Positions 2,368 to 36,192 of a stretch of 38,027 bases of DNA are shown here, one piece after another. A model generated the notes under the pieces. That model saw only the letters and a list, made by a program, of their open reading frames with translations. It made no database searches and was not told where the DNA came from. The translations under genes were made by a program, and so were the position numbers. Where the stretch lies: NCBI GenBank assembly GCA_015523685.1, contig WAJW01000185.1, forward strand, positions 1 through 38,027, in the 5' to 3' direction. How positions within the stretch are numbered: the stretch's first letter is position 1; the number at the start of each line of letters is the position of its first letter. This DNA comes from Archaeoglobaceae archaeon. Lineage in GTDB: Archaea > Halobacteriota > Archaeoglobi > Archaeoglobales > JdFR-42.

Positions 2368-2376
2368 GGTGTTCGG

Positions 2377-12105: not shown

Positions 12106-12663
12106 TCATATTCCCTCCCATGGAGAGTAAAGCTCATGTTCTATCTCGAAGAAGTCAAGAACCCTGCCAACGGTATGGTTAACGATGTCATCTATGGATG
12201 ATGGTTTTATGTAAAATGCCGGAACCGGGGGGAAAATTACCGCCCCTATTTCTGCAAGCCTCGTTAAGGATCTGAGATGTCCCACGTGAAGGGGAGTTTC
12301 CCTCACCACAGCAACAAGAGTTTTTTTCTGCTTTAAGACAACATCTGCCGATCTTGCTATGAGGTTGTCCGTTATGGAATACGCAATTGAACTCGCCATC
12401 TTGATGGAGCAGGGAGAGATTATCATTCCATCGCATGGGAAACTCCCGCTCGCTATCCTTGCTCCTACATCCGAATACTCATACACATGGGTGGCGAGGG
12501 ATTCCAGATCCACATCTCCGGTTTCAACCTCCATGTTTTTTCTTGCGGAAGGTGATACAACAAGATGGGTTTCAACATCCTCCATCTCACTCAGCACTTC
12601 AAGTAGCCTTACACCGTATATCTGACCGGATGCTCCGCTCATTCCAACTATAATTCTTTTCAT
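12106..12663 (-). CDS. ubiX: flavin prenyltransferase UbiX (prenyl-FMN synthase)
   Basis: The sequence MKRIIVGMSGASGQIYGVRLLEVL...ISPCSIKMASSIAYS...RETPLHVGHL matches the UbiX/Pad1 flavoprotein family. About 185 aa. Confidence 0.88.
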   Translation of the reverse strand: MKRIIVGMSGASGQIYGVRLLEVLSEMEDVETHLVVSPSARKNMEVETGDVDLESLATHVYEYSDVGARIASGSFPCDGMIISPCSIKMASSIAYSITDNLIARSADVVLKQKKTLVAVVRETPLHVGHLRSLTRLAEIGAVIFPPVPAFYIKPSSIDDIVNHTVGRVLDFFEIEHELYSPWEGI

Positions 12664-15669: not shown

Positions 15670-15713
15670 GTTAACACCTCTCTCCAAAAAAATTGAAAGG
15701 GGAATTTCGCCGT

Positions 15714-17523: not shown

Positions 17524-17534
17524 TTTATCACCCC

Positions 17535-19607
17535 CTATCCTCCAAGCTCTATCATGTAATCCCCGAATCCCGTTACTTTCAACACCGAATCGGGAGGAAC
17601 CACGATTGTGGTTGCACTCTGCTCCACAACTGCAGGGCCGGGTATTGCATTTCCGGGTTCCAGAGAGTCTCCGTCATATACAGGTGTTTCCGTAAAATCG
17701 TTTAGCTCAAAGAAAAAGACATCCCGCTGAGCTTTTACGTGTTTATCTGCACTGGTTTCAGCCCCGGGAAGGGGCTTTCGATCAGGTCTTCTGACCCTCC
17801 CGTAACCTTCAAGCCTGAAGTTTATGACCTCTATGTCCGTCACATCCCTGTAACCGAAGAGGGCCTCATGTTTCCGATGGAACCTCTCTGCTATTGATGG
17901 AAGATACTCTTCATACATCTCGGACTCGTCTATCGGGACGCTGATTTCATGATACTGTCCCTCATACCTCATATCCCAGCTGTAACGGAAATATCTGTTT
18001 TCAGTCGGGATACCTTCTTTTTCAAGCAGATCTATGGCAGAGTCCCTCAACGAATCTCTGATCTCACGCATCTTATCCATGTTGAGCTCACTCATTCTCG
18101 CAACTATGGAAGCCACAAAATCATGCCTTATATCCGAAATTATGCTTCCGAGAGCGCAGAAAATTGATGAAAATCGAGGTATCAGGACTTTCCTTATTCT
18201 CAGTTCCTTTGCAAGTCTTGCAGCATGGACAGGCCCCGCCCCTCCCGCAACCACGAGGGTGTACTTTCTGGGATCCTCCCCCCGCCGAACTGAAACAGTG
18301 GCTATTGCATCGGTCATGTTGTGGTCTGCAATGGCAACTATTGATCTTGCAGACTCAGCCACATCCATCCCCAGTGGTTCAGCAATATTCTCCTCCACCG
18401 CTCTGTATGCAAGGTCAGGGTCAAGCCTGATCTCACCACCCAGGAAATAGTCTGGATTGAGATAACCGAGAATCAAATCCGCATCTGTAACAGTGGGCTT
18501 CAATGAGCCCTTACCATAGCAGGCAGGCCCCGGATCAGCCCCGGCAGATTCAGGCCCGACATGCAATGCACCGAATCTGCCAATCCAGGCTATGCTTCCT
18601 CCTCCTGCCCCAACCGTATGTACATCAACCCTCGGAAGCCTTATGTGATATATTCCCCCTACAGCTGCCTCATAGCTCATTAATGGCTGGCCATTTCTGA
18701 CGAGACTTACATCAAAACTCGTACCACCCATGTCAATTGTGATAATGTCATCGATTCCCATGGGTTGAGCAATAAAAATTCCTGCCGTGGGGCCACAGGA
18801 AGGCCCTGACTGAATTGTACGAATCGGTGACTCCATGACATTGGAGGGATCAGATAAGCTCCCGTCCGCCTGAACAACAAGAAACTTACCATTGAAATCA
18901 TTTCTCTCCAGTTTTTCAGCAAGAGCCTTGAGATAAAAAACGACTGCAGGACCCGCATATGCATTGAGAGCAGAGGTGTTGATCCTCTCGTAAAAACCGG
19001 CCTCGGGATAAATTCTGTAAGATGATGCAATAAAAAGACCCGGTAACTCTTCACGGAGGAATTCTTCAACAGCGATCTCATGAACTGGATTGAGATACGA
19101 ATTCAAAAGACAGATGGCAACTGATTCGACTTTCAGATCCGTTATCCTCCTTCTGGTTTTTTCGAGATCCTCGATCCTCAAGTCAGAGAGTATCTCTCCA
19201 GATGCATCGATTCTCTCCCCAACGGGAAAAACCAGAAATCTCGGTATGAGTGGTTTTTCTTTACCTTTCTTTAAATCAAAAATGTATTCAGGCCTTTTCA
19301 CGCCTTTCTGCATATCTATATAATCTCTGAAGCCCTCTGTGGTGATAAGGGCTGTTTTTGCTCCCTTTCTTGTGAGAATTACGTTTGTCGTAGCTGTTGT
19401 TCCATGAAATATAAATTCAGTATTCTTTAACATCCCATTCAGCGTGTGGCCAATTTTTCCTGCGAGAAACGTTAGGCCGTCCACTATGCAATCAACAGTA
19501 TCCCGATCCATCATCACCTTATGGGAAACCATCGACCGGGTTTCCATATCAATGAGCAGGAGGTCTATAAAGGTTCCACCAACATCTATTCCTATTCTGT
19601 ATCTCAT
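17535..19607 (-). CDS. hyuA: hydantoinase A / oxoprolinase-family subunit (ATP-dependent hydantoinase/carboxylase family)
   Basis: MRYRIGIDVGGTFIDLLL, DMGGTSFDVSL and VGAGGGSIAW are ASKHA-fold ATPase motifs. Start 19607 preferred, since the AT-rich box at 19623-19637 fits a leaderless transcript. The ORF-track start is 19619. Confidence 0.9.
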   Translation of the reverse strand: MRYRIGIDVGGTFIDLLLIDMETRSMVSHKVMMDRDTVDCIVDGLTFLAGKIGHTLNGMLKNTEFIFHGTTATTNVILTRKGAKTALITTEGFRDYIDMQKGVKRPEYIFDLKKGKEKPLIPRFLVFPVGERIDASGEILSDLRIEDLEKTRRRITDLKVESVAICLLNSYLNPVHEIAVEEFLREELPGLFIASSYRIYPEAGFYERINTSALNAYAGPAVVFYLKALAEKLERNDFNGKFLVVQADGSLSDPSNVMESPIRTIQSGPSCGPTAGIFIAQPMGIDDIITIDMGGTSFDVSLVRNGQPLMSYEAAVGGIYHIRLPRVDVHTVGAGGGSIAWIGRFGALHVGPESAGADPGPACYGKGSLKPTVTDADLILGYLNPDYFLGGEIRLDPDLAYRAVEENIAEPLGMDVAESARSIVAIADHNMTDAIATVSVRRGEDPRKYTLVVAGGAGPVHAARLAKELRIRKVLIPRFSSIFCALGSIISDIRHDFVASIVARMSELNMDKMREIRDSLRDSAIDLLEKEGIPTENRYFRYSWDMRYEGQYHEISVPIDESEMYEEYLPSIAERFHRKHEALFGYRDVTDIEVINFRLEGYGRVRRPDRKPLPGAETSADKHVKAQRDVFFFELNDFTETPVYDGDSLEPGNAIPGPAVVEQSATTIVVPPDSVLKVTGFGDYMIELGG

Positions 19608-19752
19608 TATTTCATGCATATTTTAATTAATAAATAGTTAAGTTTTTCTCATTCAGGAGAGAAACATTTAATCCCATATCAGAACCACACAGTTTCCGCA
19701 TTCTATGGAAATTTAAATATAGAACCAGAAGAAAATTCAATTCGGTGAAGTT

Positions 19753-23644: not shown

Positions 23645-23652
23645 TTTATAAA
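23645..23652 (+). promoter_or_regulatory. TATA-like box upstream of the Mo-hydroxylase operon
   Basis: TTTATAAA lies 36-43 nt upstream of the ATG at 23688, in the 154-nt gap after the divergent Mut7-C gene. Confidence 0.4.
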
Positions 23653-23675
23653 TCGTAAAACCTTTTAAGGTCAAA

Positions 23676-23688
23676 TGATAATTTATCA
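23676..23688. promoter_or_regulatory. perfect 13-bp palindrome TGATAA-T-TTATCA between TATA box and start codon (candidate operator)
   Basis: Read directly. Half-sites are at 23676-23681 and 23683-23688. The last A is the first base of the ATG. Confidence 0.4.
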
Positions 23689-24167
23689 TGATGAAAGAGC
23701 ATTCTGTAGAGATTGTTGTCAATGGTGAGAGACATCACCTTACCGTGGGAAGTGAGATGACACTTCTCGAGGTTCTCAGAGACAGACTTGGTTTAAAGGG
23801 TGTAAAGGAGGGTTGCAGTAAGGGAGAGTGCGGAGCCTGCACAGTTCTTGTGGATGGCAGACCGGTTAACTCCTGTCTTCTTCTTGCAGTGGAAGCGGAT
23901 GGAAAAGAGATAATAACGATAGAGGGGGTGGAGAGGGACGGCCAGCTAAACCCCATTCAGGAGGAATTCATAGAACATGGAGCGGTGCAGTGTGGTTTCT
24001 GTACACCCGGGATGATAATATCAGCAAAATACCTTATTGAAAATAATCCAGATCCTTCAGAGGAAGAAATCCGGGAGGCAATATCGGGTAATCTGTGCAG
24101 ATGCACGGGATATGTAAGGATAATTTCTGCGATTAAATCGGCTGTAGATAAGTACTCCATGAGGTGA
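23688..24167 (+). CDS. molybdenum hydroxylase (xanthine dehydrogenase family) small subunit, two [2Fe-2S] clusters
   Basis: Plant-type cluster CSKGECGACTV...C and the second cluster QCGFCTPGMI...CRCTGY. About 159 aa. Confidence 0.92.
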   Translation: MMKEHSVEIVVNGERHHLTVGSEMTLLEVLRDRLGLKGVKEGCSKGECGACTVLVDGRPVNSCLLLAVEADGKEIITIEGVERDGQLNPIQEEFIEHGAVQCGFCTPGMIISAKYLIENNPDPSEEEIREAISGNLCRCTGYVRIISAIKSAVDKYSMR

Positions 24168-24173
24168 TAATGC

Positions 24174-26549
24174 TTGCAGGAAATTCTCAGGAAAAAAAAG
24201 ACAGAATACAGGTATGTGGGCAAACCTGTCAGAAGAGTGGATGGTTACAAGAAGGTAACAGGAAGAGCCGTTTATACCGTGGATGTGGATCTTCCCGGGA
24301 TGCTTCACGGAAAAATCCTGAGAAGCCCCCATCCCCATGCCATCATAAAAAGCATAGATACCTCAAAGGCAGAAAGACTTCCGGGAGTGAAGGCGATTAT
24401 AACAGGAAAGGATACAGAAGGTGTCCGCTTTGGATTTGTGGAAACACCCCATATGCCTGCGGACATGCCTCCTCTCGCAGAGGACAGGGTGAGATATGTT
24501 GGTGAGGCCGTTGCTGCGGTTGCAGCGACTTCAGAAAAGGTTGCGGTTAAGGCCATTAACCTCATAGAGGTGGAATATGAGCCTCTTAAAGCTGTTTTTC
24601 ATCCAGAAGAGGCCATGAAACCCGAGGCCCCGGCAATCCATGACGTCATATATCCTTCCGGTCGATCTTTCTGGCAGGAGTGGGGCGTGGAGAGGGATAG
24701 CACACCCCAGAAAGTCGAGAGGAACATCGCAAGCACCCTCAAACTTGAAATAGGAGATGTGGAGGAGGGTTTTGGCAATGCCGATCATGTAAAAGAGGGG
24801 CGATTTGAGACGAATGTAACCGCACATGGGGCTCTCGAACCCCATGGAGCGGTTGCAAGATACTCCGAGGGGAGGCTGGATGTCTGGCTATCCCATATGG
24901 GTCCGTATATGAAAAGATACTGGCTTGCCAGAACAATGGGGCTTCCTGAGAGTCATGTCAGGGTTCGTCCCGCATTTGTGGGAGGTGCCTTCGGAGGGAA
25001 GATTGACCTTTTTGATTATGAATACATAGCAAGCCACCTCTCCAGATTGACCGGCAGACCCGTTAAGATAGTTCTCACACGGCGGGAGGTGTTTCAGGCA
25101 ACCAGGCTTAGACATCCGATGATTTTCTACATTAAGACCGGTGTAAAAAAGGATGGAAGGATAACCGCTATGGATATTAAAGCAATCGATGACACCGGAG
25201 CTTACAGAGGTACCGGACCGGTGGTTGTCTATCTCGCCCACGCTTTTTCAATTCCGATATACAGAATTCCAAATCTGAGGTATACGGGTTATGCTGTTTA
25301 CACAAACAATCCTGTCAGAGTGGCGATGAGGGGGCATGGAGCGCCTCAGGCAAGGTTTGCTGTTGAACAGCAGATCGATGAAATCGCAGAAGAGGCAGGA
25401 CTTGATCCCTATGAAATCAGGATGATAAATGCAAGGGAAAGGGGAGATGTTCTGCCCAATGGCGACGTGCTTAATAGCTGTGGTCTTAAGGAGGCCCTCA
25501 CAAGAGCGGTTGAAGATGGCAAATTCCTCCAGAAGTACGGGAAACACAGGGGGAAAGGAAGAGGAGTCGGAATCGGACTGACGAGCATGTTCAGCGGTGC
25601 CCAGTTCTATCCGTTCGGTGCAACAGGAGTTGTTCTCCTTCATGATGATGGAGGAGCCACTGTTTTTACGGGAGCGATAGAATTTGGACAGGGTTCCGAT
25701 ACCATGATGTGCCAGATTGTTGCTGAAGAGCTGGGAATCGACATGGAGAGGGTGAGCATTCTCTCAGGAGATTCCGAACTCTGCCCCATCGCCCTTGATA
25801 ACTGGTTGAGCGGAGGCACATTCGTGAATGGAAGGGCGGTACAGCTCGCAGCCATTGATGCAAGAAATAAACTGTTCGAGTACGCTGCAGAATTGCTGGG
25901 AGTTAGCAGAGACGAGCTTCAGGCGGAAGACAATGTGATATATTCCGCTGACAACCCTTCGAAGAGGATACCTCATGAAAAGGTGGTAAAGTACGCAATT
26001 CACAGAAACAGAGGTCAGCAGATTGTCGGAGTTGGTCATGCAACTCCTGTCGAAGGAGCGTACTGGTATCCGAGCCTTACCACCGGTAAAGGCAGGTTCA
26101 CCGGGGCATATTCCTTCTCCGCGACCTTTGCGGAAGTTGAGGTGGATTTTGAGACGGGAGTGGTTAAGGTGGTCAGAATAATAAACGCCCACGACTGTGG
26201 ATATCCCATCAATCCCGTACTCGTTGAGGGGCAGGCGGAAGGGCAGGGCTACATGGGAATGGGTCAGGTACTTTTTGAGGAGGTTATCGAGGAAAAGGGT
26301 ACAATCCTCAATCCCAACTTTCTGGACTATCTCATGCCCACCTCCATTGACGTACCCGAAATGAAGACCATACACATCGAGACACACGACCCCAACGGTC
26401 CTTTCGGTGGAAAAGAGGTTGGAGAGGGAGTTATTGCGGGTGTTGTTTCAGCGATAGCCAACGCAATCTACGATGCAACCGGAGTTCGTTTCAGAAAACT
26501 CCCGATTCTACCTTCAGATATTCTTGATGCCCTGGAGGGGAGAGAATGA
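24174..26549 (+). CDS. molybdenum hydroxylase large (molybdopterin-binding) subunit
   Basis: YVGKPVRRVDGYKKVTGRAVYTVD N-terminus. GGAFGGK motif. C-terminal GGKEVGEG containing the family catalytic Glu position. TTG start 7 nt after a GAGGTGA SD. Confidence 0.9.
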   Translation: MQEILRKKKTEYRYVGKPVRRVDGYKKVTGRAVYTVDVDLPGMLHGKILRSPHPHAIIKSIDTSKAERLPGVKAIITGKDTEGVRFGFVETPHMPADMPPLAEDRVRYVGEAVAAVAATSEKVAVKAINLIEVEYEPLKAVFHPEEAMKPEAPAIHDVIYPSGRSFWQEWGVERDSTPQKVERNIASTLKLEIGDVEEGFGNADHVKEGRFETNVTAHGALEPHGAVARYSEGRLDVWLSHMGPYMKRYWLARTMGLPESHVRVRPAFVGGAFGGKIDLFDYEYIASHLSRLTGRPVKIVLTRREVFQATRLRHPMIFYIKTGVKKDGRITAMDIKAIDDTGAYRGTGPVVVYLAHAFSIPIYRIPNLRYTGYAVYTNNPVRVAMRGHGAPQARFAVEQQIDEIAEEAGLDPYEIRMINARERGDVLPNGDVLNSCGLKEALTRAVEDGKFLQKYGKHRGKGRGVGIGLTSMFSGAQFYPFGATGVVLLHDDGGATVFTGAIEFGQGSDTMMCQIVAEELGIDMERVSILSGDSELCPIALDNWLSGGTFVNGRAVQLAAIDARNKLFEYAAELLGVSRDELQAEDNVIYSADNPSKRIPHEKVVKYAIHRNRGQQIVGVGHATPVEGAYWYPSLTTGKGRFTGAYSFSATFAEVEVDFETGVVKVVRIINAHDCGYPINPVLVEGQAEGQGYMGMGQVLFEEVIEEKGTILNPNFLDYLMPTSIDVPEMKTIHIETHDPNGPFGGKEVGEGVIAGVVSAIANAIYDATGVRFRKLPILPSDILDALEGRE

Positions 26550-27502
26550 TCATACCATTCGAGTTTGAATACTTCAGGCCTTCAAGTATCAGGGAGGCGG
26601 TTGATCTCCTCTCAGAGGAGGATTCCATACCCATTGGAGGAGGCACGGATCTCGTTCCGATGTTCAAGGATGCTCTTATAAAACCCGGGAAGGTTGTTAG
26701 CCTGAAAAATATTCCTGAAACTCACGGAATTGAATTTGATGGAGAGAGACTTTCAATCGGTTCAGCGGTAACCCTTACAGAAATTGCTGAGAACGGTGTA
26801 ATCAGGGAACATTTCAACTCAATAGCGACAACCGCAAGGAATGTTGCCTCACCTCAGATCCGGAATCTGGGAACCATAGGGGGAAATTTATGCCAGAATC
26901 TGAGATGCCCGTACTACAGGCTCGGTTATCCGTGCCATAAAAATGGAGGCAAGAAATGCTTTGCCATTGGAGGAGAGAGTAGATGGCACTCCATTTTTGG
27001 AGGGAAAAAATGCTTTGCTGTAAACCCTTCAGATATGGCAACAATACTCATTGCCCATGGAGCCGTCCTTGAGATAGCGGGCAGAAATGACACAATTCCT
27101 TTAGAGGAGCTCTATGAAGGCCCAGGAGAACTCTCATTAAAAAAAGGGGAAATAATAACCCGAATTTATCTGGAAAGGAGAGAGAATTCGAAAGCCATCT
27201 TTATGAAGTTCAGACTAAGGGGATCAATTGACTTTGCCCTTGTCAGCACGGGTATAAGGATTGACTTTGATGGGAATGAGATTGAAGATGCATCCATAAT
27301 TCTGGGCAGTGTGTATGGCACACCATACAGGGCAATAAATTCGGAGGAGTTTCTGAAAGGAAATACTCTGACGGACACAGCGATTACAAAAGCCTCGGAA
27401 CTGGCTGTTGAAGGGGCGAAACCCCTCAAAAAGAATAAATACAAGGTTAAAATTGCAAAAACTCTCGTTAAGAGGGGGCTCGAAACTCTCAGAGGTGGAT
27501 GA
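26546..27502 (+). CDS. molybdenum hydroxylase FAD-binding medium subunit with Cys-rich (HcrB/PaoB-type, putative [4Fe-4S]) insertion
   Basis: GGGTDLVP and GTIGGNL FAD motifs, then CQNLRCPYYRLGYPCHKNGGKKCFAIGGESRWHSIFGGKKCFAVNPSD. ATGA overlap with the large-subunit stop. Confidence 0.88.
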   Translation: MIIPFEFEYFRPSSIREAVDLLSEEDSIPIGGGTDLVPMFKDALIKPGKVVSLKNIPETHGIEFDGERLSIGSAVTLTEIAENGVIREHFNSIATTARNVASPQIRNLGTIGGNLCQNLRCPYYRLGYPCHKNGGKKCFAIGGESRWHSIFGGKKCFAVNPSDMATILIAHGAVLEIAGRNDTIPLEELYEGPGELSLKKGEIITRIYLERRENSKAIFMKFRLRGSIDFALVSTGIRIDFDGNEIEDASIILGSVYGTPYRAINSEEFLKGNTLTDTAITKASELAVEGAKPLKKNKYKVKIAKTLVKRGLETLRGG

Positions 27503-27503
27503 G

Positions 27504-29075
27504 ATGAAAATAGACTCTTTCATACCCTACGAACTTCAGCCTACCCTCGTTTTTCCCCTTCCTGAAATTCAGTATCCTCCTCAAATAAATGTATGCAATG
27601 AACTGGTTGACAGAAATGTGGAGAGGGGTCTGGGTGATAAACCTGCGGTCATATCGGATGAGGGAGTAATAACCTACAGGGAACTGCAGAATGAGATTTC
27701 ACGGATTTCCGGGGGATTAATTGACGCTGGAATAGGGGAAGGAGATAGGGTCCTTATCAGGGGGATGAATCGCCCTGAAACCCTCATATCCATTCTGGCG
27801 GTAATGAGATGTGGGGCTATAGCTGTACCAACGATGCATCTCCTCAGAGAGGGTGAGCTTGAAAAAATAGCAAAGGACTGTGAGCCGAAAATGGCCATTG
27901 TTCAGAGCGGTCTGGAGAGGGAGATTGAAAGAATCGATTACGAATTCAGAGAAATAATCCAATTTCCTGAATCAGAAAGACACTCGTCTCTGAAAGACCT
28001 GAGAGGTGAAAAAACCAGGGCGGTTTCAACGGAGAGGGATGATATTGCCCTGATGCTCTACACCTCGGGAACAACCGGAACTCCAAAGGGTGTGATACAT
28101 ACCCATGAATCAATACTGAGTGCTGCAGACACCTTCAGCAGATATGCCTTTTCTCCCGATGAAAGGGACATATTCACGGGACACCCATCAATGGCCTTTG
28201 CCTACTGTTTTGCCGGACTCATCGTTTACCCTCTCCGGGCTGGAGCTTCGACCGCCCCCATGGAAGAATTCCACCCCGACAGAACCCTTGACATCATAGA
28301 GGATTATCAGGCAACTATATTTTTTACCGTTCCAACAGCCATCAATCTAATCCTCCAGAATGAAACGGATGAGCACAGCCTTGAGAGTCTGAGAGCAGTT
28401 TCGAGTGCCGGAGAGAAACTCCCTCCTGCAATCCTGAGAAAATGGATGGAGAGATTCAATGTGCCCATAGTCGAAAACATGGGAACCTCGGAAATCCTCG
28501 CGAGTTTCATCTCGAACAGGGTGGATGAAATAAAGGAGGGATCATGTGGCAGACCTGTTCCGGGTTATGAAGTGAGAATAATGGACGATAATATGAGAGA
28601 GGTGAAGAGAGGAGAGATCGGGTACATGTTTGTGAGAGGTCCCACAGGCGCAAGATACTGGAAGAGAAATGAAGAACAGAAAAAGTACGTGAAACGTGGA
28701 TGGACATATACCGGTGATCTGGCATGGATGGATGAGGATGGCCACATATACTACGTTGCAAGGGTGGACGATGTCATAATATCTTCGGGATACAGAATCA
28801 CATCCCAGGAAGTGGAGAATATCCTGCTTGAACATCCAGCGGTTAAGGAAGTTGCTGTTACGGGAGTTAAGGACGAGAAGAGGGGTCAGGTTCCCAAGGC
28901 GTTTGTTGTTCTTAAAGATGAAGTTGCCCCGGAAGAATCACTGAAAGAAGAGCTGAAAAACTTTGCTAAATCGAAGCTCGCTCCATATAAATATCCGAGA
29001 CAGATCGAGTTTTTAAAGGAATTACCCAAAACCCCAACGGGAAAGATAAAAAGGAGAGAGCTAAGGAACAGATGA
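27504..29075 (+). CDS. aryl-CoA ligase (benzoate / 4-hydroxybenzoate-CoA ligase-like AMP-dependent synthetase)
   Basis: N-terminus NVCNELVDRNVERGLGDKPAV and AMP motif LMLYTSGTTGTPKGVIHTH. The C-terminus KLAPYKYPRQIEFLKELPKTPTGKIKRRELR resembles aromatic-acid CoA ligases. Start at 27504, 1 nt after the upstream stop. The ORF-track start 27408 lies inside the FAD subunit gene. Confidence 0.8.
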   Translation: MKIDSFIPYELQPTLVFPLPEIQYPPQINVCNELVDRNVERGLGDKPAVISDEGVITYRELQNEISRISGGLIDAGIGEGDRVLIRGMNRPETLISILAVMRCGAIAVPTMHLLREGELEKIAKDCEPKMAIVQSGLEREIERIDYEFREIIQFPESERHSSLKDLRGEKTRAVSTERDDIALMLYTSGTTGTPKGVIHTHESILSAADTFSRYAFSPDERDIFTGHPSMAFAYCFAGLIVYPLRAGASTAPMEEFHPDRTLDIIEDYQATIFFTVPTAINLILQNETDEHSLESLRAVSSAGEKLPPAILRKWMERFNVPIVENMGTSEILASFISNRVDEIKEGSCGRPVPGYEVRIMDDNMREVKRGEIGYMFVRGPTGARYWKRNEEQKKYVKRGWTYTGDLAWMDEDGHIYYVARVDDVIISSGYRITSQEVENILLEHPAVKEVAVTGVKDEKRGQVPKAFVVLKDEVAPEESLKEELKNFAKSKLAPYKYPRQIEFLKELPKTPTGKIKRRELRNR

Positions 29076-29641
29076 TCAGGGCGGTCATACTTGCCTCCGG
29101 GAAATCAGAACGATTCGGCGGTGTGAAGCTTCTTGAAAGATTTCGTGGAAGACCTCTCATAGAGATATGCCTCAATTCATTTTTGAAAACAGGAGTAAAA
29201 GGAGTCGTTGTAACACACAACCCTGCAATCTCGGATATATCCACAAAGATGGGTTTCAGAACAGTTCCTGGAGGGGTATCGCTGAGTGAAAGTCTCAAAT
29301 CAGGTTTAAAATCAGTTGACTGGAGTGAGGGGATACTCATCCATCTCGCCGACATACCCTTTGTAAGACCGGAGACAATTAAGAATCTGATTGATGCATT
29401 CTCCAGCAGTCCTGATAAAATTTTGATCCCCCGCTACAACGGTGCTCCCGGACATCCGAGGATATTTCCTCCAGAATTGATTCCAGAATTTTTCAGTATA
29501 ACAGGTGACAGGGGAGGAAGAGATATAGTGGACAGACATTCAGAAAAGGTGAGAAGATTTGACTGCAATGATCCGGGTGTGATTTACGATATAGATACGA
29601 GAGAACAGCTGGAGAGGGCGTACAGCCTGTTCAGGATATGA
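29072..29641 (+). CDS. mocA: MobA-like NTP transferase, molybdenum cofactor cytidylyltransferase type
   Basis: AVILASGKSERFGG.KLL, LADIPFV, GAPGHPRIFP, GDRGGRDIV and DIDTREQLE match the MocA pattern. ATGA overlap with the ligase stop. Confidence 0.75.
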   Translation: MIRAVILASGKSERFGGVKLLERFRGRPLIEICLNSFLKTGVKGVVVTHNPAISDISTKMGFRTVPGGVSLSESLKSGLKSVDWSEGILIHLADIPFVRPETIKNLIDAFSSSPDKILIPRYNGAPGHPRIFPPELIPEFFSITGDRGGRDIVDRHSEKVRRFDCNDPGVIYDIDTREQLERAYSLFRI

Positions 29642-29643
29642 TT

Positions 29644-30456
29644 TCAGTACAGGATTCCTGCCCCTCTCCCCAGATACATCACGGCCTCAAGGACGCCTCC
29701 CGCAACCGCCCTTGATTTATCGGAGATGGTGAAACAGTACTCCCTGTTGCCTCTCGGATCGACATCACCGATCTTCATCCCCCTTCTCACCCTGATTCCC
29801 GGTCTGATCAGACCTCTCAAGACTCCATCAATCTCTGATACGACATCAATTCCGGAAACCCTGCCGACAACATCTCCCTTCTTCACATGATCCCCTATTT
29901 TTCTTTCAGATCTGAAGATTCCATCTGCTGGAGCTCTGAGCACTCTTTCAACTGTGTATCCTCCGATATTACCCGGAATACCCGTGTTCTCCTCTGCCGA
30001 GCCTTCAAGAATCACCCTCCCGAGATTATGACCCCTGTTGGTTTCTATCACAGCATGGACATCCTTTCCCGCTCTGAAACCCGGTCCAAGAGCAATCACA
30101 ACGGGAGCATCGTTTATTGCTGTTCCCGTGTTCCTCTTTGCCATTATAGCATCAACCACCACTTCAGGATTCAGAATTTTTACAGTACTTCCGGAAGGAT
30201 CGGCAATTACGGGAATACCACCCCTCTCCCACACATTCCTGAATTCACTCACTTCCGAAACACGATATGCAGTAATCCCCTCCACCTCCTTCATCCCATC
30301 GTAAATCGCTTCACTGAAGGATACCTCTCTGCGAATGGAGGTTGGATACGGGGCTTCTGTAATACACACCCTGAAACCCGCTCTTGCAAGCCTCCACGCA
30401 ACCCCCGTTCCCAGATCTCCACCACCCTTTATCAGGACTCTTATATCCCCGATCAT
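29644..30456 (-). CDS. YqeB/EF2563-like selenium-dependent molybdenum hydroxylase system accessory protein (family call from memory)
   Basis: IRVLIKGGGDLGTGVAWRLARAGFRV...IRREVSFSEAIYDG...RGHNLGRVILEGSAEENTGIPGNIGGYTVERVLRAPADGIF...GDVDPRG...ISDKSRAVAGGVLEAV. Start at 30456. The 77 upstream codons of the ORF-track call are low-complexity and overlap xdhC. Confidence 0.6.
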   Translation of the reverse strand: MIGDIRVLIKGGGDLGTGVAWRLARAGFRVCITEAPYPTSIRREVSFSEAIYDGMKEVEGITAYRVSEVSEFRNVWERGGIPVIADPSGSTVKILNPEVVVDAIMAKRNTGTAINDAPVVIALGPGFRAGKDVHAVIETNRGHNLGRVILEGSAEENTGIPGNIGGYTVERVLRAPADGIFRSERKIGDHVKKGDVVGRVSGIDVVSEIDGVLRGLIRPGIRVRRGMKIGDVDPRGNREYCFTISDKSRAVAGGVLEAVMYLGRGAGILY

Positions 30457-30466
30457 TGAACAAGAG

Positions 30467-30488
30467 TTAAATATCCCATCAATATAAA
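30467..30488. promoter_or_regulatory. back-to-back TATA-like boxes in the 44-nt divergent gap (candidate crossed leaderless promoters)
   Basis: TTAAATAT (30467-30474) is centred about 30 nt from the xdhC ATG (30501). AATATAAA (30481-30488, TTTATATT on the minus strand) is centred about 28 nt from the yqeB-like ATG (30456). Confidence 0.4.
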
Positions 30489-30500
30489 CTCTCTCCCGTA

Positions 30501-31508
30501 ATGATATACCAGGAGCTTGAGAGATTTGTGGATAAAAAAATACCGTTTGCACTTGTAGCTGTGATTGAAAAGAGGGGCTCAGGACCCGTTTCAATGGATT
30601 CAAGGATGGCTGTAACCTTTGATGATTCAATTGGCACGGTTGGTGGAGGGGTTCTGGAGGCAAGGGCAAAAGAGAGGGCAGTTTCATGCCTTGAGAATGG
30701 CAGTTCGGAGGTCATCCAGTTCGTTCTCAGAGAAGATGGAAATGTGGATCTCATATGCGGAGGGGAGGTGAAGTTGTTCATCAAACCTTTCCTTCCTGAA
30801 AATCCGGATTATAGACTGATGGAGAAGGCCATCAGATTCTCAAAACAGGGTACTGATGTCTGTATGGGATTTGTGATCTCTCCCTTTGAGGGAGTTTATC
30901 TCCACACCGGGAGTACTGGAGAGGATCTGGGTATTCCCGAAGGTATCAAAGAAAGAATTAAGGAGTTGTGTGAGCAAACTGCAATTGAAGGGAAGAGCAG
31001 ATTTTTTAAAAATGAATTTTCCGCATTCATTGAGTATATATCCAGAAAGCCCATGCTTGTCCTTTTTGGGGGAGGGCATGTCAGTTATTATCTTTCAAAA
31101 ATTGCCTCCCTGAATGGCTTTTCCATCACGGTGATTGACGACAGGCCCGAATATGCGAACAGGGAGAGGTTTCCCGAAGCTGAAAGGGTTATTGCAGGCG
31201 ATTATGGGGAGGTGACCGATAGTCTCACACTGGATGGCAATACATACATTGTCATACAGACGAGAGGTCATGAAATTGATAAAGAAGTCCTGAAAAGAGT
31301 TATCAATTCAAATGCAGTGTATATAAGTATGATAGGGAGCAGAAGAAAGGTCAACCTGATTTTCAGGAGGCTGAGAGAGGAGGGCATCCCTGAAGATTTG
31401 CTAAGGAGGGTCAGAGCTCCGGTTGGGCTCGATATAGGATCTGAAACACCACCGGAAATAGCCGTCAGCATAATGGCCCAGATAATTATGGAAAGACGGA
31501 AAAAATAA
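30501..31508 (+). CDS. xdhC: XdhC/CoxI family molybdenum cofactor insertion chaperone
   Basis: N-terminal XdhC_CoxI domain (ALVAVIEKRGSGPVSMDSRMAV...VGGGVLEA). C-terminal Rossmann domain (VLFGGGHVSYYL...IVIQTRGHEIDKEVL...MIGSRRK...VRAPVGLDIGSETPPEIAVSI). Confidence 0.82.
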   Translation: MIYQELERFVDKKIPFALVAVIEKRGSGPVSMDSRMAVTFDDSIGTVGGGVLEARAKERAVSCLENGSSEVIQFVLREDGNVDLICGGEVKLFIKPFLPENPDYRLMEKAIRFSKQGTDVCMGFVISPFEGVYLHTGSTGEDLGIPEGIKERIKELCEQTAIEGKSRFFKNEFSAFIEYISRKPMLVLFGGGHVSYYLSKIASLNGFSITVIDDRPEYANRERFPEAERVIAGDYGEVTDSLTLDGNTYIVIQTRGHEIDKEVLKRVINSNAVYISMIGSRRKVNLIFRRLREEGIPEDLLRRVRAPVGLDIGSETPPEIAVSIMAQIIMERRKK

Positions 31509-31523
31509 TTCTATCACTGTAAA

Positions 31524-31547
31524 ACAATCTTTAATACAATCTTTAAT
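31524..31547 (+). repeat. perfect tandem direct repeat 2 x ACAATCTTTAAT upstream of the ABC transporter operon (candidate regulator binding site)
   Basis: Read directly. Copies are at 31524-31535 and 31536-31547. It lies upstream of AT-rich TATA-like stretches (31557-31569, 31581-31594) and the ATG at 31612. Confidence 0.5.
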
Positions 31548-31611
31548 TCGAAAATTATTTTAATATCTTTGTCAATCATTTACAATAATAAATTGAGATG
31601 GAGTGATTGAG

Positions 31612-32880
31612 ATGTTGAAAAAACCTGTAACAAGGAGGGATTTTGTAAAGGGTGTTGCTGTGGGAGGTTCTCTGATTATTGGAAGCTCACTGCTTGGATG
31701 TGCGGAGAAAAAACCCACGCCTACTCCAACTCCGGGAGAGACACCCAAGCCTACCCCAACCGCACCGAAAAAACCCATAAAGATAGGAGCTCTTGAGCCG
31801 TTGAGCGGTCCTTTTGCGTCGTGGGGTGATCCCCATCTTAAAGGGCTCAAAATGGCGGTTGAAGAGATCAATTCCGCGGGAGGTGTGCTTGGAACCAAAC
31901 TTGAGGTGGTTGAAAGGGATACAAAGAACAACCCGAGTGAGGCAGCAACAACTGTTGAAGAGCTGGCATATCAGGAGGGTGTGGTTGCAATAACCGGAAT
32001 TGTCTCAAGCGGTGTGGGTCTTGCAACTGGCAAGAAGGCCGAGGAAGTTAAGGTTCCATTATTCCTCCATATGGCTGGAAGCGATGCAATACTTACAAAA
32101 AACAGCAGGTATACCTTCAGAACTGCTCTTTCTCCCGCTCCTGCTCTAATGCAGGCGTTTGCAGAATTCATCAAGAATCAGGGATTCAAGAGAGTCGGAG
32201 CGGTGATTGCCGATTATGCATGGGGTCATGCATGTGAAAAGGCGATAAACAAATACATCGTTCCTCTGGAGGGTGTGGAAGTGCATATGGAGGTTGCACC
32301 GGTCAAAGAGACAGATTTCACCTCCTACCTGAGAAAACTCCAGGAATTCAATCCTGAATTCATCATTGCAACATCCCATCCACCGGGAACGGCAAAGATA
32401 GTAAAGCAGGGCATGGAGCTTGGACTAAACGCGAAATATATAGGGCCTAATTTCTCAAAGAAGATATGGGAGTCTGCTATCGGTGAAAAACTGACCCAGG
32501 GTGTTCTGGATATATCTCCAGTCAACTATGAGCATCCAGCATTTACGGAGCTTGGCAAAAAATTCGTGGCAAAGTACAATGAAGACCTTGACTTTGCGGG
32601 AGTTACAGGATACGTCAACGCATATCAGATAGCAGATGCAATCAAACGGGCAAATTCAAGCGATCCCAAGGATGTTGCAACCGCAATAAGAACAGGCTCA
32701 TTCAAAATGGATCCGTTCGCATACCCGCTTTCATACACAGAGTGGGGAGACCTGAAGGAGGCGAGAGAGGTCATAGTTTCATTTGCAAAAGGAGGGCCTT
32801 CATTCTACCCGAGTGCCCTGACCCACTTCCAGGTGGAATTCATAACGCCACCATTAACTCCACCCGAACCGTCAGCGTAA
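31612..32880 (+). CDS. ABC transporter substrate-binding protein (LivK/type I periplasmic binding fold) with Tat signal, lipobox and Pro/Thr linker
   Basis: MLKKPVTRRDFVKGVAVGGSLIIGSSLLGC, then AEKKPTPTPTPGETPKPTPTAPKKP, then IKIGALEPLSGPFASWG, typical of Leu/Ile/Val-binding-family proteins. GGAGTG SD upstream of the ATG at 31612. The ORF-track GTG is at 31603. Confidence 0.85.
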   Translation: MLKKPVTRRDFVKGVAVGGSLIIGSSLLGCAEKKPTPTPTPGETPKPTPTAPKKPIKIGALEPLSGPFASWGDPHLKGLKMAVEEINSAGGVLGTKLEVVERDTKNNPSEAATTVEELAYQEGVVAITGIVSSGVGLATGKKAEEVKVPLFLHMAGSDAILTKNSRYTFRTALSPAPALMQAFAEFIKNQGFKRVGAVIADYAWGHACEKAINKYIVPLEGVEVHMEVAPVKETDFTSYLRKLQEFNPEFIIATSHPPGTAKIVKQGMELGLNAKYIGPNFSKKIWESAIGEKLTQGVLDISPVNYEHPAFTELGKKFVAKYNEDLDFAGVTGYVNAYQIADAIKRANSSDPKDVATAIRTGSFKMDPFAYPLSYTEWGDLKEAREVIVSFAKGGPSFYPSALTHFQVEFITPPLTPPEPSA

Positions 32881-32914
32881 CTGATAAATGTGAGGACACT
32901 GGAGTCTTTACCGC

Positions 32915-33631
32915 ATGGAAGCACTGCTTAAATGCACCGACATATGGAAATCATTTGGAGGGTTTACCGCCCTCAAAGGCGTGAACATAGAGGTTTTCAG
33001 CGGAGAGATAGTGGGTCTTATCGGCCCCAATGGAGCGGGGAAGACAACCCTGCTCAATTTAATCAACGGGGTGCTCAAACCTACAAAGGGTAAGGTGGAA
33101 TTTGAAGGCAGGATCATAAGTGGTAAAAAACCCCACGTTATCTGCAGACTCGGGATCGGAAGGGTTTTCCAGATCCCCCGTCCTTTTTTTGAAATGAGCT
33201 GTATTGAGAACGTTGTTACAGCACTGCTTTTCAACGATGTGAGGGACAGAGGTGAGGCTGAAGAGAGGGCTATGGAACTTCTGGAGTTTGTCGGGATATC
33301 CGATCCTCAGGCGACTCCGGATGAGATAACACTTCAGGATAAGAGAAGACTTGAGATGGCAAGAGCTCTTGCAACCAATCCAAGACTGATACTTGTGGAT
33401 GAATACATGGCCGGATTGAACATAGGAGAGATAGAAGATGCACTCAACCTCTTCAAAAAGATAAGGGATGATCTTGGCATAACCATCCTCTGGGTTGAGC
33501 ACGTGATGCATGCCATAATGAAGCTGGCTGACAGGATTGTCGTGCTTGATCACGGAACAAAAATCGCCGAAGGAAAACCCGAGGAGATCGTGAAGGATAA
33601 GAAGGTTATTGAGGCATATCTTGGTGGATGA
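32915..33631 (+). CDS. livG: ABC transporter ATP-binding protein, LivG type
   Basis: Walker A GPNGAGKTT, RTFQ-like GRVFQ, signature-like LQDKRRLEMARAL and Walker B LILVDEYMAGL. Confidence 0.88.
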   Translation: MEALLKCTDIWKSFGGFTALKGVNIEVFSGEIVGLIGPNGAGKTTLLNLINGVLKPTKGKVEFEGRIISGKKPHVICRLGIGRVFQIPRPFFEMSCIENVVTALLFNDVRDRGEAEERAMELLEFVGISDPQATPDEITLQDKRRLEMARALATNPRLILVDEYMAGLNIGEIEDALNLFKKIRDDLGITILWVEHVMHAIMKLADRIVVLDHGTKIAEGKPEEIVKDKKVIEAYLGG

Positions 33632-33645
33632 AAGGGGGCAATTGA

Positions 33646-34362
33646 TTGGAAAAGATACTATCGGTAAATGATCTGTATGCGGGCTACAGGGGATTGAACA
33701 TACTCTGGGGTGTCAACATTGAGGTCAGAAAGAACGAGGTTGTTTCTATCATCGGCCCCAATGGAGCGGGGAAGACAACCCTCCTTAAAGCCATCTCCGG
33801 ACTCGTAATTCCATCCAGGGGAGAGAGAAGATTCAATGACAGGGAAATCAACAGCTTCAAGCCCCATACCAGAGTGGACATGGGTCTGACGTTCGTACCA
33901 AGCGAGAGAGAGCTCTTTCCCGAGCTGACAGTTGAGGAGAACCTTGAACTTGGAGCCTACACAAGAAGAGCAAGGAAAAACATGACAAGATCGCTCGAAC
34001 AGATTTACGAGTTTTTTCCACGACTTGAGGAGAGGAGAGATCAGCCAGCCGGAACCCTCAGTGGTGGAGAACAGCAGATGCTTGCAATCGCAAGGGCCCT
34101 GATGTCCTCTCCCGATCTGATTTTACTGGACGAGCCCTCGACGGGCCTGTCACCCATTGCGACAATAACAATATATGAAAAACTCAAGGAACTCACCTCA
34201 AGGCTTTCACTTCTGATAGCAGAACAGAACGTACACCAGGCATTTGAGATAGCTGACAGAATCTACGTGCTGGAGAACGGGAGAATAGTGGCTGAGGGAG
34301 AACCATCGGAACTCTCTGAAGACGGCCTTATAAAATCAGCCTATTTCGGAGTGAGAGAATGA
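33646..34362 (+). CDS. livF: ABC transporter ATP-binding protein, LivF type
   Basis: TTG start. Walker A GPNGAGKTT, LSGGEQQMLAIARAL and LILLDEPSTGLSP. Confidence 0.88.
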   Translation: MEKILSVNDLYAGYRGLNILWGVNIEVRKNEVVSIIGPNGAGKTTLLKAISGLVIPSRGERRFNDREINSFKPHTRVDMGLTFVPSERELFPELTVEENLELGAYTRRARKNMTRSLEQIYEFFPRLEERRDQPAGTLSGGEQQMLAIARALMSSPDLILLDEPSTGLSPIATITIYEKLKELTSRLSLLIAEQNVHQAFEIADRIYVLENGRIVAEGEPSELSEDGLIKSAYFGVRE

Positions 34363-35216
34363 TTGAAATCATTGTGGATGGAATTCTGTTTGGATTGCAG
34401 TTATCACTTCTTGCTATAGGCATGGTACTGATATTCGGTCTCGGAGGTGTGCTGAATCTTGCCCACGGTGAATTCGTGATCATCACAGGAATAATCGCAG
34501 GATTGCTGATGGGCATGGGTTTCAACCCTCTTTTTGCCATAATTCTCGGAATCCTTACATCAGGCGGTGTGTGGGCAGTTCTTGACAGAACGCTTTTGAG
34601 ACCGGTTTACAGACTAACCGGGGAAATTGAGATTCTCGTGGGTCTGTTTCTGACCCTCGGTCTCGCTTCTGCAATTGACGGGGTTATATCGTATTTCTTT
34701 CCCGGGCTTTACTTTTCCATCGGAATTCCCATAGAAACCATAACGGTTCTTGGACTCAAATTCAGGGCATCGAGTATGATTGCAGGACTTGTGGCCATCA
34801 TCTCACTTTTACTGCTCCTTTATTTCCTGGGGCGAACGATGACCGGGAGGGCGATCAGAGCCATACTGCAGAACCAGACCGGAGCAAGGCTTTGCGGGAT
34901 AAACGTTGAGAACATCAGAACACTTGTCTTCTTCCTCGGAGGTATTATGGCGGGGCTTGCGAGCGTTGCTCAGGGTCTGAGCTCATCTGTGGACCCCGGC
35001 TCCGGACTTGAACTGACTTCCCTTGCCCTGATCGTAAGCGTGGTTGGGGGAGTCAGAAGCGTTTACGGTGCCATAATATCAGGTGTTCTCCTCGGCATTG
35101 TCAACTCTTTCGTGGGGTATTATGTTGGAACATATCTTGCCCTCATAATCCTGCTCGGCGTGGTAATCACGGTTGTACTCTTTAAACCAACAGGTCTGTT
35201 TGCCAGGAGTGTGTGA
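34359..35216 (+). CDS. livH: ABC transporter permease, LivH type
   Basis: ATGA overlap with livF. The N-terminus GILFGLQLSLLAIGMVLIFGLGGVLNLAHGEF is typical of LivH. About 8 hydrophobic helices. Confidence 0.85.
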   Translation: MIEIIVDGILFGLQLSLLAIGMVLIFGLGGVLNLAHGEFVIITGIIAGLLMGMGFNPLFAIILGILTSGGVWAVLDRTLLRPVYRLTGEIEILVGLFLTLGLASAIDGVISYFFPGLYFSIGIPIETITVLGLKFRASSMIAGLVAIISLLLLLYFLGRTMTGRAIRAILQNQTGARLCGINVENIRTLVFFLGGIMAGLASVAQGLSSSVDPGSGLELTSLALIVSVVGGVRSVYGAIISGVLLGIVNSFVGYYVGTYLALIILLGVVITVVLFKPTGLFARSV

Positions 35217-35217
35217 T

Positions 35218-36192
35218 ATGAAGACAAACACATTCAGAACAGAGCTTTCGGGTTACCTCCCCTTTGCCATGTTCATCGTTCTCGGTATCCTGCCCGTTGT
35301 TATAAAAAATCCCTATCAGCTAAGGGTTCTCACAAACATAGCGGTTTTCATTTCATTCACATACGCAGCAAACATCATCTTCGGGGAGAGCAGACAGCTA
35401 TTCCTGTGTATGAGTGCCCTTTCAGGCATGGGTGCATATACTTCAGGGATAATATCAATACATCTGGGAATAGACCCATGGATCACCCTTCTGGCCGGCA
35501 TACTCGTATCCACGGCAGTTGGGGCATTGCTGAGCTATGTTTCCGTTTCTCGAGGGCTGGGAGTCATATTTGTGGCAATAGTAACCCTCGCATTCACACT
35601 GATATTCGAGAATGCGGTGCTCGGGCTGAGAGAGCTTACGATGGGTGAAACCGGCCTTCTGATGCCCTCCCTCAGATGGCCACTGGAGAGTTTTATTGAC
35701 AGAAGACTTGCAAGTTTCTATACAATTCTGGTATTCTCAGCCTTTTCGGCCTTCATCTACTTCATTCTCGTTCGTTCAAAACTTGGAATAGGGCTAAGAG
35801 CGATGAGAAGCGACAGTGTGTCATCCGAGGCCATTGGAATAGATGTGACAAAGTACAACGTTATGGCAGCGAGCATCGGGTCCGCGATCCTCGGCCTCAA
35901 TGGCGGTCTTTACGCATATTTCCTGGGGATGTCATCTCCCGGGATTTTCTCCCCTTCCATGGACATAACCATATTCCTCATGCTAATTCTCGGGGGATTT
36001 GGCACCCTCTCTGGACCGATAATAGGCTCGATCGTTATTATTCTGATTCAGGAATTCACGAGGGGTCTTGGTCAGCTGACAATGACGTTTTTCGGGGTTC
36101 TGCTTGTCGTCCTGATCCTGATATTCAGGGAAGGTCTTTCATCCATACTGGAGAGAGCGGGAAGATATCTGAAATCACAGAGAGGTGCATGA
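35218..36192 (+). CDS. livM: ABC transporter permease, LivM type
   Basis: ATG at 35218, 1 nt after the livH stop. The ORF-track start 35173 lies inside livH. Polytopic, with the conserved-looking RAMRSDSVSSEAIGIDV loop. Confidence 0.85.
   Translation: MKTNTFRTELSGYLPFAMFIVLGILPVVIKNPYQLRVLTNIAVFISFTYAANIIFGESRQLFLCMSALSGMGAYTSGIISIHLGIDPWITLLAGILVSTAVGALLSYVSVSRGLGVIFVAIVTLAFTLIFENAVLGLRELTMGETGLLMPSLRWPLESFIDRRLASFYTILVFSAFSAFIYFILVRSKLGIGLRAMRSDSVSSEAIGIDVTKYNVMAASIGSAILGLNGGLYAYFLGMSSPGIFSPSMDITIFLMLILGGFGTLSGPIIGSIVIILIQEFTRGLGQLTMTFFGVLLVVLILIFREGLSSILERAGRYLKSQRGA

Follow-up and report, generated by a model that had tools for sequence, protein, structure and literature searches.

What does an archaeon do with a molybdenum enzyme belonging to the xanthine oxidase (XO) family whose genes lie together with those for an acid-coenzyme A (CoA) ligase, an importer and cofactor maturation proteins? 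The question is raised by positions 23645-36192 of contig WAJW01000185.1 (assembly GCA_015523685.1, an Archaeoglobaceae archaeon), a stretch of 38,027 nucleotides referred to below as the window. The answer that we favour, and hold to be somewhat on the probable side, is that these genes together form a self-sufficient island for the catabolism of a single class of organic acid, with an aromatic or heteroaromatic carboxylate as the likeliest candidate. The acid would be imported, activated with CoA and subjected to molybdenum chemistry as the thioester.

Gene calls were taken from a mechanical list of open reading frames (ORFs) together with Pfam and NCBIfam scans, and the junctions were read directly in the DNA. 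Twelve genes were found in the order proposed by an earlier note on this DNA, their coordinates confirmed by ORFs and domains, and they are preceded by a promoter-like element:

23645-23652, + strand: TATA-box-like element TTTATAAA, read in the sequence 36 nt 5' of the first ATG
23688-24167, + strand: [2Fe-2S] small subunit (Pfam Fer2_2, 117.7 bits, and Fer2)
24174-26549, + strand: molybdenum subunit, 791 aa, HcrA-like and of the clade called W below (Pfam Ald_Xan_dh_C, MoCoBD_1, MoCoBD_2)
26546-27502, + strand: FAD subunit, 318 aa, with ~37 additional residues (Pfam FAD_binding_5, CO_deh_flav_C)
27504-29075, + strand: benzoate/anthranilate-type acid-CoA ligase of the ANL family, 523 aa (Pfam AMP-binding, AMP-binding_C)
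29072-29641, + strand: MobA-like nucleotidyltransferase, probably MocA, 189 aa (Pfam NTP_transf_3, 111 bits)
29644-30456, - strand: YqeB, 270 aa (TIGR03309 over the full length, 388.6 bits, cut-off 220)
30501-31508, + strand: XdhC-family molybdenum cofactor insertion/sulfuration chaperone, 335 aa (Pfam XdhC_CoxI, XdhC_C)
31603-32880 (likely start ATG 31612), + strand: LivK/HAAT-type substrate-binding protein (SBP) (Pfam Peripla_BP_6, 214 bits)
32915-33631, + strand: ABC ATPase, LivG-like (Pfam ABC_tran, BCA_ABC_TP_C; NF008449 192 bits, below cut-off)
33646-34362, + strand: ABC ATPase, LivF-like (Pfam ABC_tran; below cut-off on NF008626, 204 bits, and on TIGR03410, 220 bits)
34359-35216, + strand: permease, LivH-like (Pfam BPD_transp_2, 100.5 bits), with an ATGA overlap with the LivF-like gene
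35218-36192, + strand: permease, LivM-like (Pfam BPD_transp_2, 92.8 bits)

The gene identities, operon structure and translational coupling described in the earlier note all agreed with the ORFs, the domain scans and the junctions as read. The first five genes are joined by a 6-nt gap, an ATGA overlap, a 1-nt gap and a further ATGA overlap, and TTTATAAA is a putative archaeal promoter for this operon. MocA and YqeB are convergent and 2 nt apart while YqeB and XdhC are divergent and 44 nt apart. The molybdenum subunit starts at a TTG codon with a Shine-Dalgarno-like GAGGTGA just 5' of it. Three starts in the mechanical list required attention: the ligase begins at ATG 27504 and the listed TTG 27408 is wrong, the LivM-like permease likely begins at ATG 35218 and its listed ORF at TTG 35173, and the 347-aa YqeB ORF from 30687 is an artefactual N-terminal over-extension, the TIGR03309 match beginning at its residue 84. 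A perfect tandem direct repeat of ACAATCTTTAAT, in two copies at 31524-31547, lies in the AT-rich intergenic region between XdhC and the SBP and could be an operator or promoter element of the importer genes. Regulator genes were not found within the island.

The molybdenum subunit scored far above the cut-offs of PF01315, PF02738 and PF20256, as a member of the XO/molybdenum hydroxylase family. Its best solved relative was HcrA (1rm6_A), the large subunit of the 4-hydroxybenzoyl-CoA reductase (below, 4-HBCR) of Thauera aromatica, at 419.5 bits, a margin of 130 bits over the runner-up family (a CoxL-like protein, 289 bits), while aldehyde oxidoreductase structures scored ~200-220 bits. The catalytic Glu751 aligned with Glu726 of HcrA. 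The best NCBIfam model was likewise that of HcrA, TIGR03194, which the subunit matched at 644.6 bits relative to a cut-off of 994.55. The other subunits also scored below the cut-offs of the 4-HBCR models, the FAD subunit at 168.2 bits on TIGR03195 (beta; cut-off 404.55) and the small subunit at 186 bits on TIGR03193 (gamma; cut-off 257.8). As a control, HcrA of T. aromatica reached 1389.1 bits on TIGR03194 and an Acidobacteria relative (L072) 1036.5 bits. Because of these scores on the HcrA model and an identity to HcrA of 37.9%, the enzyme is judged by sequence to resemble 4-HBCR and not to be its ortholog.

A neighbor-joining tree without bootstrap, which combined the window and HcrA with 30 homologs from databases, 84 loci from genomes and 3 outgroups (119 sequences in all), placed the window enzyme in a large and well-separated clade, here termed clade W, and HcrA elsewhere, together with Acidobacteria loci. 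Six other clade W proteins with 53-78% identity to the window enzyme scored 640-681 bits on TIGR03194. Clade W proteins share the invariant catalytic Glu and an insertion of ~22 residues with an invariant WxxWG (window residues ~158-182), which is absent from HcrA, all other clades and the outgroups. Hosts of clade W were subsurface Chloroflexota, Thermodesulfobacteriota, Bacillota, Rokubacteria and a few archaea.

These results bear on a narrower version of our answer, in which the enzyme would be a divergent and bona fide 4-HBCR serving growth on 4-hydroxybenzoate or phenol. It would agree with the JGI name of the 78% homolog P0003 (4-hydroxybenzoyl-CoA reductase subunit alpha), with an architecture that is that of the R. 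palustris hba cluster and with the reported use of 4-hydroxybenzoate by Ferroglobus, a relative of the host. The equivalog cut-offs were however missed widely where the control HcrA passed, the enzyme falls in a separate clade with an insertion that HcrA lacks, and the varied ligase and transporter partners of clade W described below suggest several substrates. We give this version little credence.

The small subunit retained all eight [2Fe-2S] cysteines (positions 43/48/51/63/102/105/137/139). The FAD subunit carries an insertion of ~37 residues with C121, C130, C138 and C156, which in a MAFFT alignment fell on C122/C138/C146/C155 of HcrB, its [4Fe-4S] ligands, while a pairwise phmmer alignment placed one of the four differently. 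The loop is therefore treated as a putative additional [4Fe-4S] site. It was found in most clade W members and was missing in three. The best PDB matches of the FAD subunit were 5y6q_B of a Methylobacillus aldehyde oxidase (142.9 bits) followed by 1rm6_B. Since such a loop is also present in oxidising enzymes, namely PaoB and the Methylobacillus aldehyde oxidase, it does not fix the direction of the reaction. Taken together, the hcrCAB likeness pointed out in the earlier note was upheld as to the nearest solved and NCBIfam relative, the gene order and the cysteine loop, and did not extend to membership of 4-HBCR by cut-offs or by clade.

Whether the substrate is a CoA thioester was addressed through the gene neighbourhoods of ten independent clade W lineages relative to 75 loci of other HcrA-like clades. 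An acid-CoA ligase lay within 6 kb of the molybdenum genes, mostly adjacent, in eight of the ten clade W lineages and in 18 of the 75 other loci (Fisher p = 9e-4), these context statistics resting on tblastn detection and uneven flank lengths. The ligases were of two unrelated families, an ANL benzoate-type ligase of ~520 aa in the archaeal lineage, L007 and L088 and a PaaK-type ligase of ~440 aa in L004, L005, L085, L086 and L089. Carboxylate transporters were also recurrent, including Liv-type ABC importers in the archaeal lineage, L086 and in part L007, and a TRAP transporter in L085. That one ligase has been exchanged for a non-orthologous one while the context is conserved argues for CoA activation as a part of the pathway in which the molybdenum enzyme works, and this is the strongest evidence in this analysis that supports a CoA-thioester pathway. 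The proposal of a CoA-thioester substrate, first made from the window's own gene order, was strengthened by this linkage.

The same neighbourhoods bear on a second explanation, in which the substrate of the molybdenum enzyme would be free and not a thioester (for example an aromatic acid, an aldehyde or a purine-like heterocycle), the ligase handling another intermediate at an earlier or later point or being merely co-regulated. Two clade W loci (L084 and L090) were without a nearby ligase, XdhA models scored 539.5 and 527.6 bits on the large subunit, not far under the HcrA model, and among solved structures the FAD subunit is best matched by a subunit of an aldehyde oxidase. The set of MocA, XdhC and YqeB also mirrors purine and selenium-dependent molybdenum hydroxylase (SDMH) regions of E. 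coli and Enterococcus (PMC2276186). Yet translational coupling ties the ligase gene of the island into the operon, where it stands between the FAD subunit and MocA, the ligase linkage recurs across most of the clade with both ligase families, and the large subunit is far nearer to HcrA than to the structure of any aldehyde oxidoreductase, CODH or XDH. A free substrate is therefore considered unlikely.

With a CoA thioester as the favoured substrate, the next question is which acid is activated. The best solved relatives of the island ligase were an anthranilate-CoA ligase (4wv3, 277.7 bits) and benzoate-CoA ligases (2v7b at 265 bits and another at ~250 bits), and aryl-CoA ligases as solved relatives outscored acyl- and acetyl-CoA synthetases. 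On TIGR02262 (benzoate-CoA ligase) it reached 355.7 bits, narrowly under the cut-off of 375.25, so that the description of the enzyme as an aromatic-acid-type ligase is borne out by its nearest solved relatives and falls just short on the family model. On the generic 'long-chain' family PRK06187 it scored 373.4 bits relative to a cut-off of 476. A second ligase in the window (14107-15717, - strand) scored 538 bits on PRK06187, above the cut-off and clearly within the generic family, which makes the island ligase the more aryl-like of the two.

This second ligase closes an apparent operon at 14107-19619 (- strand) that begins with genes resembling subunits A and B of ATP-dependent hydantoinases/caprolactamases. 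Subunit A (17535-19619) scored 626 bits on NF050156, under the cut-off of 1000. Subunit B seems to be interrupted, as 16351-17523 corresponds to profile positions 11-343 and 15714-16127 to positions 499-574 and the middle was unmatched. In the relative with 78% large-subunit identity (L002/L003), a Hydantoinase_A gene lies ~9.5 kb upstream of the island.

The importer had all the components of a HAAT (LivKHMGF-type) system, a LivK-type SBP, two BPD_transp_2 permeases and two ATPases, one of them with BCA_ABC_TP_C. The N-terminus of the SBP showed a Tat-like RRDFVKG, a lipobox-like LLGC and a Pro/Thr linker. Its solved relatives were generic LivJ-type proteins, with the aromatic-acid binders of R. 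palustris scoring lower; as the SBP is no nearer to aromatic-acid than to amino-acid binders, it carries no information on the ligand. The importer is arranged differently in the related strain L097 (1-9958; GCA_054013995.1, on a 50-kb contig), where SBP-LivG-LivF stands ahead of permease genes in inverted orientation and of another LivK-type SBP, beyond which lie an NRD1_2/winged-helix regulator, an Amidohydro_1 protein of 396 aa and a lyase of the DHDPS family. In the place of that arrangement the window has LivH-LivM and a 229-aa membrane protein without a family match. Exact look-ups with LivM and with the last membrane protein of the window brought no new information past its right end.

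The maturation genes suggest what kind of molybdenum cofactor is involved. The best NCBIfam model of the MobA-like protein was TIGR03310 (MocA/YgfJ), at 127.9 bits relative to a cut-off of 186.45, and XdhC scored 274.3 bits on NF045664, under the cut-off of 350. YqeB exceeded its cut-off by a wide score, and its homologs carry the NCBI name YqeB/EF2563 family, the nearest of them coming from the same bacterial phyla as clade W. The earlier note had taken YqeB for a generic maturation gene and so missed an implication, since Haft and Self defined TIGR03309 as a marker of SDMHs found only in selD-positive genomes (PMC2276186), and on xanthine and urate a yqeB deletion strain of C. difficile behaves like a mutant in selD (PMC11448449). 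YqeB would thus probably give the cofactor a labile selenium (or sulfur) ligand. YqeC (TIGR03172) was not found among the window ORFs scanned, and yqeC is dispensable in C. difficile (PMC11448449). One YqeB homolog (P0252, from an Anaerolineae metagenome-assembled genome, MAG) had no adjacent molybdenum enzyme; proximity of YqeB is therefore informative only when present. In two further clade W loci (L084 578-2012 and L007 12437-16111) YqeB stood with MocA-like or XdhC genes near the molybdenum enzyme, as in the archaeal island, the order in L007 (Rokubacteria) being molybdenum genes, XdhC, YqeB, ANL ligase and LivG/F.

YqeB also bears on the direction of the reaction. In an oxidative variant nested within the general model, an aryl-CoA or N/O-heteroaryl-CoA would be hydroxylated beside the heteroatom, possibly with a selenium cofactor, after which an amidohydrolase or hydantoinase would open the lactam or lactone so formed. 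YqeB marks SDMHs, all known SDMHs hydroxylate N-heterocycles (PMC2276186, PMC11448449), and YqeB lay within 10 kb of the clade W enzyme in three of ten lineages as against two of 75 loci of other clades (p = 0.011). Adenine-deaminase-like amidohydrolases directly flank the molybdenum genes in L084 and L088, the island of L097 has an Amidohydro_1 gene beyond it, in the window the caprolactamase-like pair of hydantoinase A/B genes is found 4 kb upstream, and hydroxylases are the majority of XO-family enzymes. On the other hand, the nearest characterised enzyme is a reductase, housekeeping genes separate the island from the hydantoinase genes, whose B subunit is apparently interrupted, and the island has no hydratase or lactonase gene. 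We regard the oxidative variant as possible and rather doubtful.

Between the two directions we lean slightly towards a reductive one, by analogy with 4-HBCR, in which a ring substituent para to the thioester would be lost. This lean follows from the nearest characterised enzyme being a reductase, the hcrCAB gene order, the [4Fe-4S] loop and the anaerobic, Ferroglobus-related lineage. In the pathway as we propose it, the lipoprotein SBP of the LivK type and the LivHMGF-type ABC transporter would bring in the acid, and the benzoate/anthranilate-type ligase would convert it to the CoA thioester at the expense of ATP. The HcrCAB-like enzyme would then alter a ring substituent of the thioester by oxygen-atom transfer at molybdenum, its cytosine dinucleotide cofactor being synthesised by MocA, held and inserted by XdhC and probably furnished with the labile ligand by YqeB. 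In the reductive direction electrons would pass from ferredoxin through the [4Fe-4S] cluster, FAD and the two [2Fe-2S] clusters to molybdenum; in the alternative direction the enzyme would carry out an oxidative hydroxylation of an aryl- or heteroaryl-CoA. That this would be the first selenium-dependent, YqeB-matured XO-family enzyme acting on an aryl- or heteroaryl-CoA other than 4-hydroxybenzoyl-CoA, representing a large and globally distributed clade, is a specific proposal that we consider decidedly unlikely. The indoleacetate (iaa) pathway was considered as a further candidate and rejected, as a functional molybdenum enzyme in that operon was not supported (PMC8360864) and the window is without mutase or acyl-CoA dehydrogenase genes.

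Several observations weigh against a pathway for aromatic or heteroaromatic acids of the kind favoured here. Genes for benzoyl-CoA reductase, dienoyl-CoA hydratase and ring cleavage were absent from the 38-kb window, and benzoyl-CoA pathway and ring-cleavage genes were likewise absent from the 10 kb on either side in related contigs and from the neighbourhood of every clade W locus inspected; the 50-kb contig of L097 also had no benzoyl-CoA pathway. To our knowledge YqeB is known only with hydroxylases. To these are added, from the results above, the scores of all three subunits below the 4-HBCR cut-offs, the low identity to HcrA and the separate clade with its own insertion, the narrow miss of the ligase on TIGR02262, the generic relatives of the SBP, the occurrence of the [4Fe-4S] loop in oxidising enzymes and the two clade W loci without a nearby ligase.

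The host is, by sequence, an uncultured archaeon related to Archaeoglobi and Ferroglobus, because the seryl-tRNA synthetase in the flank has 68% identity to its Ferroglobus sp. and F. placidus counterparts and 66% to that of Geoglobus, and the flank carries archaeal markers (NAC, above the cut-off of TIGR00264, Fae-Hps, a 220-aa TIM, SepF and ZPR1). The synthetase is also similar to that of Archaeoglobaceae MAGs. The archaeal nature of the flanks, asserted earlier on gene content, was thereby confirmed. The argument that processing of aromatic CoA thioesters is rare in archaea, also made then, proved weaker. Ferroglobus (F. placidus) degrades aromatic acids via CoA thioesters and is the textbook archaeal aromatic degrader, so that the host lineage makes the island less of a surprise, and HcrA-like genes were found in other archaeal MAGs, those of Aigarchaeota (59% identity to the window enzyme) and of Methanomassiliicoccales. 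The Methanomassiliicoccales gene (L043, 1524-3791 of contig CAYFYA010000030.1) scored 901.9 bits on TIGR03194, its product being much nearer to bona fide 4-HBCR than is the window enzyme, and has a MocA-like gene upstream.

The G+C content of the island (0.46-0.49) was no different from that of its flanks. In two related archaeal assemblies the island likewise adjoins the Fae-Hps/TIM/Mut7-C flank, with large-subunit identities to the window of 78% in L002/L003 and above 90% in L097, from which we conclude that it is an inherited, stable locus and not an assembly chimera. A metagenome scan with the large subunit returned only the 78% relative and three loci at ~36-38% identity, and no Archaeoglobi loci were among the matches listed when GTDB representatives were scanned with the clade alignment. 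Elsewhere in the window a four-gene operon resembling succinate dehydrogenase/fumarate reductase (flavoprotein, Fe-S subunit and two Sdh_cyt genes for membrane subunits) lies at 670-3842 and is followed by a MarR-type regulator on the opposite strand (3852-4223). A UbiX-family flavin prenyltransferase is encoded at 12106-12663 (- strand), with 250 bits on NF004685 (cut-off 188) and 227 bits for VdcB. UbiX is the partner of UbiD-type aromatic (de)carboxylases, and no UbiD gene was seen in the window.

The name '4-hydroxybenzoyl-CoA reductase' is given to thousands of clade W proteins by metagenome pipelines and is taken as evidence that phenol or hydroxybenzoate is degraded anaerobically. The clade itself differs from the characterised enzyme and is consistently linked to CoA ligases, whose type varies, and in several lineages to the selenium-cofactor marker YqeB, and identification of its substrate would correct a widespread annotation. 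Such a substrate could also bring to the XO family, in its reductive or selenium-dependent branches, a third type of reaction or a first substrate that is a CoA thioester. For expression the archaeal island offers a good start, since it is compact and brings its own ligase, MocA, XdhC and YqeB.

In the reference systems hcrCAB and hbaBCD, the gene order is small-large-FAD (gamma-alpha-beta) with a 4-hydroxybenzoate-CoA ligase neighbouring. The window shares with Thauera HcrCAB (1RM6/1SB3) and with hbaA-hbaBCD-hbaEFGH of R. palustris this order followed by a ligase, as well as the four-Cys loop of the FAD subunit, the MCD-type cofactor logic, an aryl-type ligase and a Liv-type importer. It differs from both in its archaeal host and in encoding YqeB, XdhC and MocA within the island. 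It differs from HcrCAB further in the loop spacing (C-x8-C-x7-C-x17-C in the window and C-x15-C-x7-C-x8-C in HcrB), the identity of little more than a third, the subunits below cut-off and the separate clade with the WxxWG insertion.

SDMH systems such as E. barkeri nicotinate dehydrogenase and clostridial xanthine dehydrogenase (with yqeB, yqeC and ygfJ) are similar in having YqeB and a YgfJ/MocA-like gene by an XO-family enzyme. The window nevertheless has no yqeC or selD within its 38 kb, its catalytic subunit is HcrA-like and not NdhL- or XdhA-like (259 bits for 3hrd_A as against 419.5 for HcrA), and its enzyme is coupled to a CoA ligase; we know of no characterised SDMH that is so coupled. 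The position of XdhC adjoining YqeB parallels an XdhC-YqeB fusion in Haloarcula (PMC2276186).

Reductive dehydroxylases of the XO family have only now been extended past 4-HBCR by Ucdh (UcdCFO) of Enterocloster bolteae, the second such enzyme, which has 32.7% identity to 4-HBCR, its nearest characterised relative, and takes off a hydroxyl group para to a carbonyl that withdraws electrons (PMC12771579). In the medium subunit the two enzymes differ, as HcrB, the beta subunit of 4-HBCR, has an additional element (PMC11760930). Like the window enzyme, with which it is compared by description only, Ucdh is a three-subunit XO-family enzyme nearest to 4-HBCR, while its substrate is a free polyphenol lactone. 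In the aerobe Cupriavidus basilensis, HmfABC is a three-subunit XO-family 2-furoyl-CoA dehydrogenase that works with the acid-CoA ligase HmfD. This system is alike in concept, combining a ligase and a three-subunit enzyme acting on a heteroaryl-CoA. PaoABC (5g5g) and the Methylobacillus aldehyde oxidase (5y6q) share the [4Fe-4S]-binding loop of the FAD subunit; their large subunits, however, scored 216 and 200 bits relative to 419.5 for HcrA, and they oxidise free aldehydes without linkage to a ligase. The architecture of the archaeal island thus copies the logic of the R. palustris hba and Thauera hcr clusters, and its sequence belongs to a different, uncharacterised clade.

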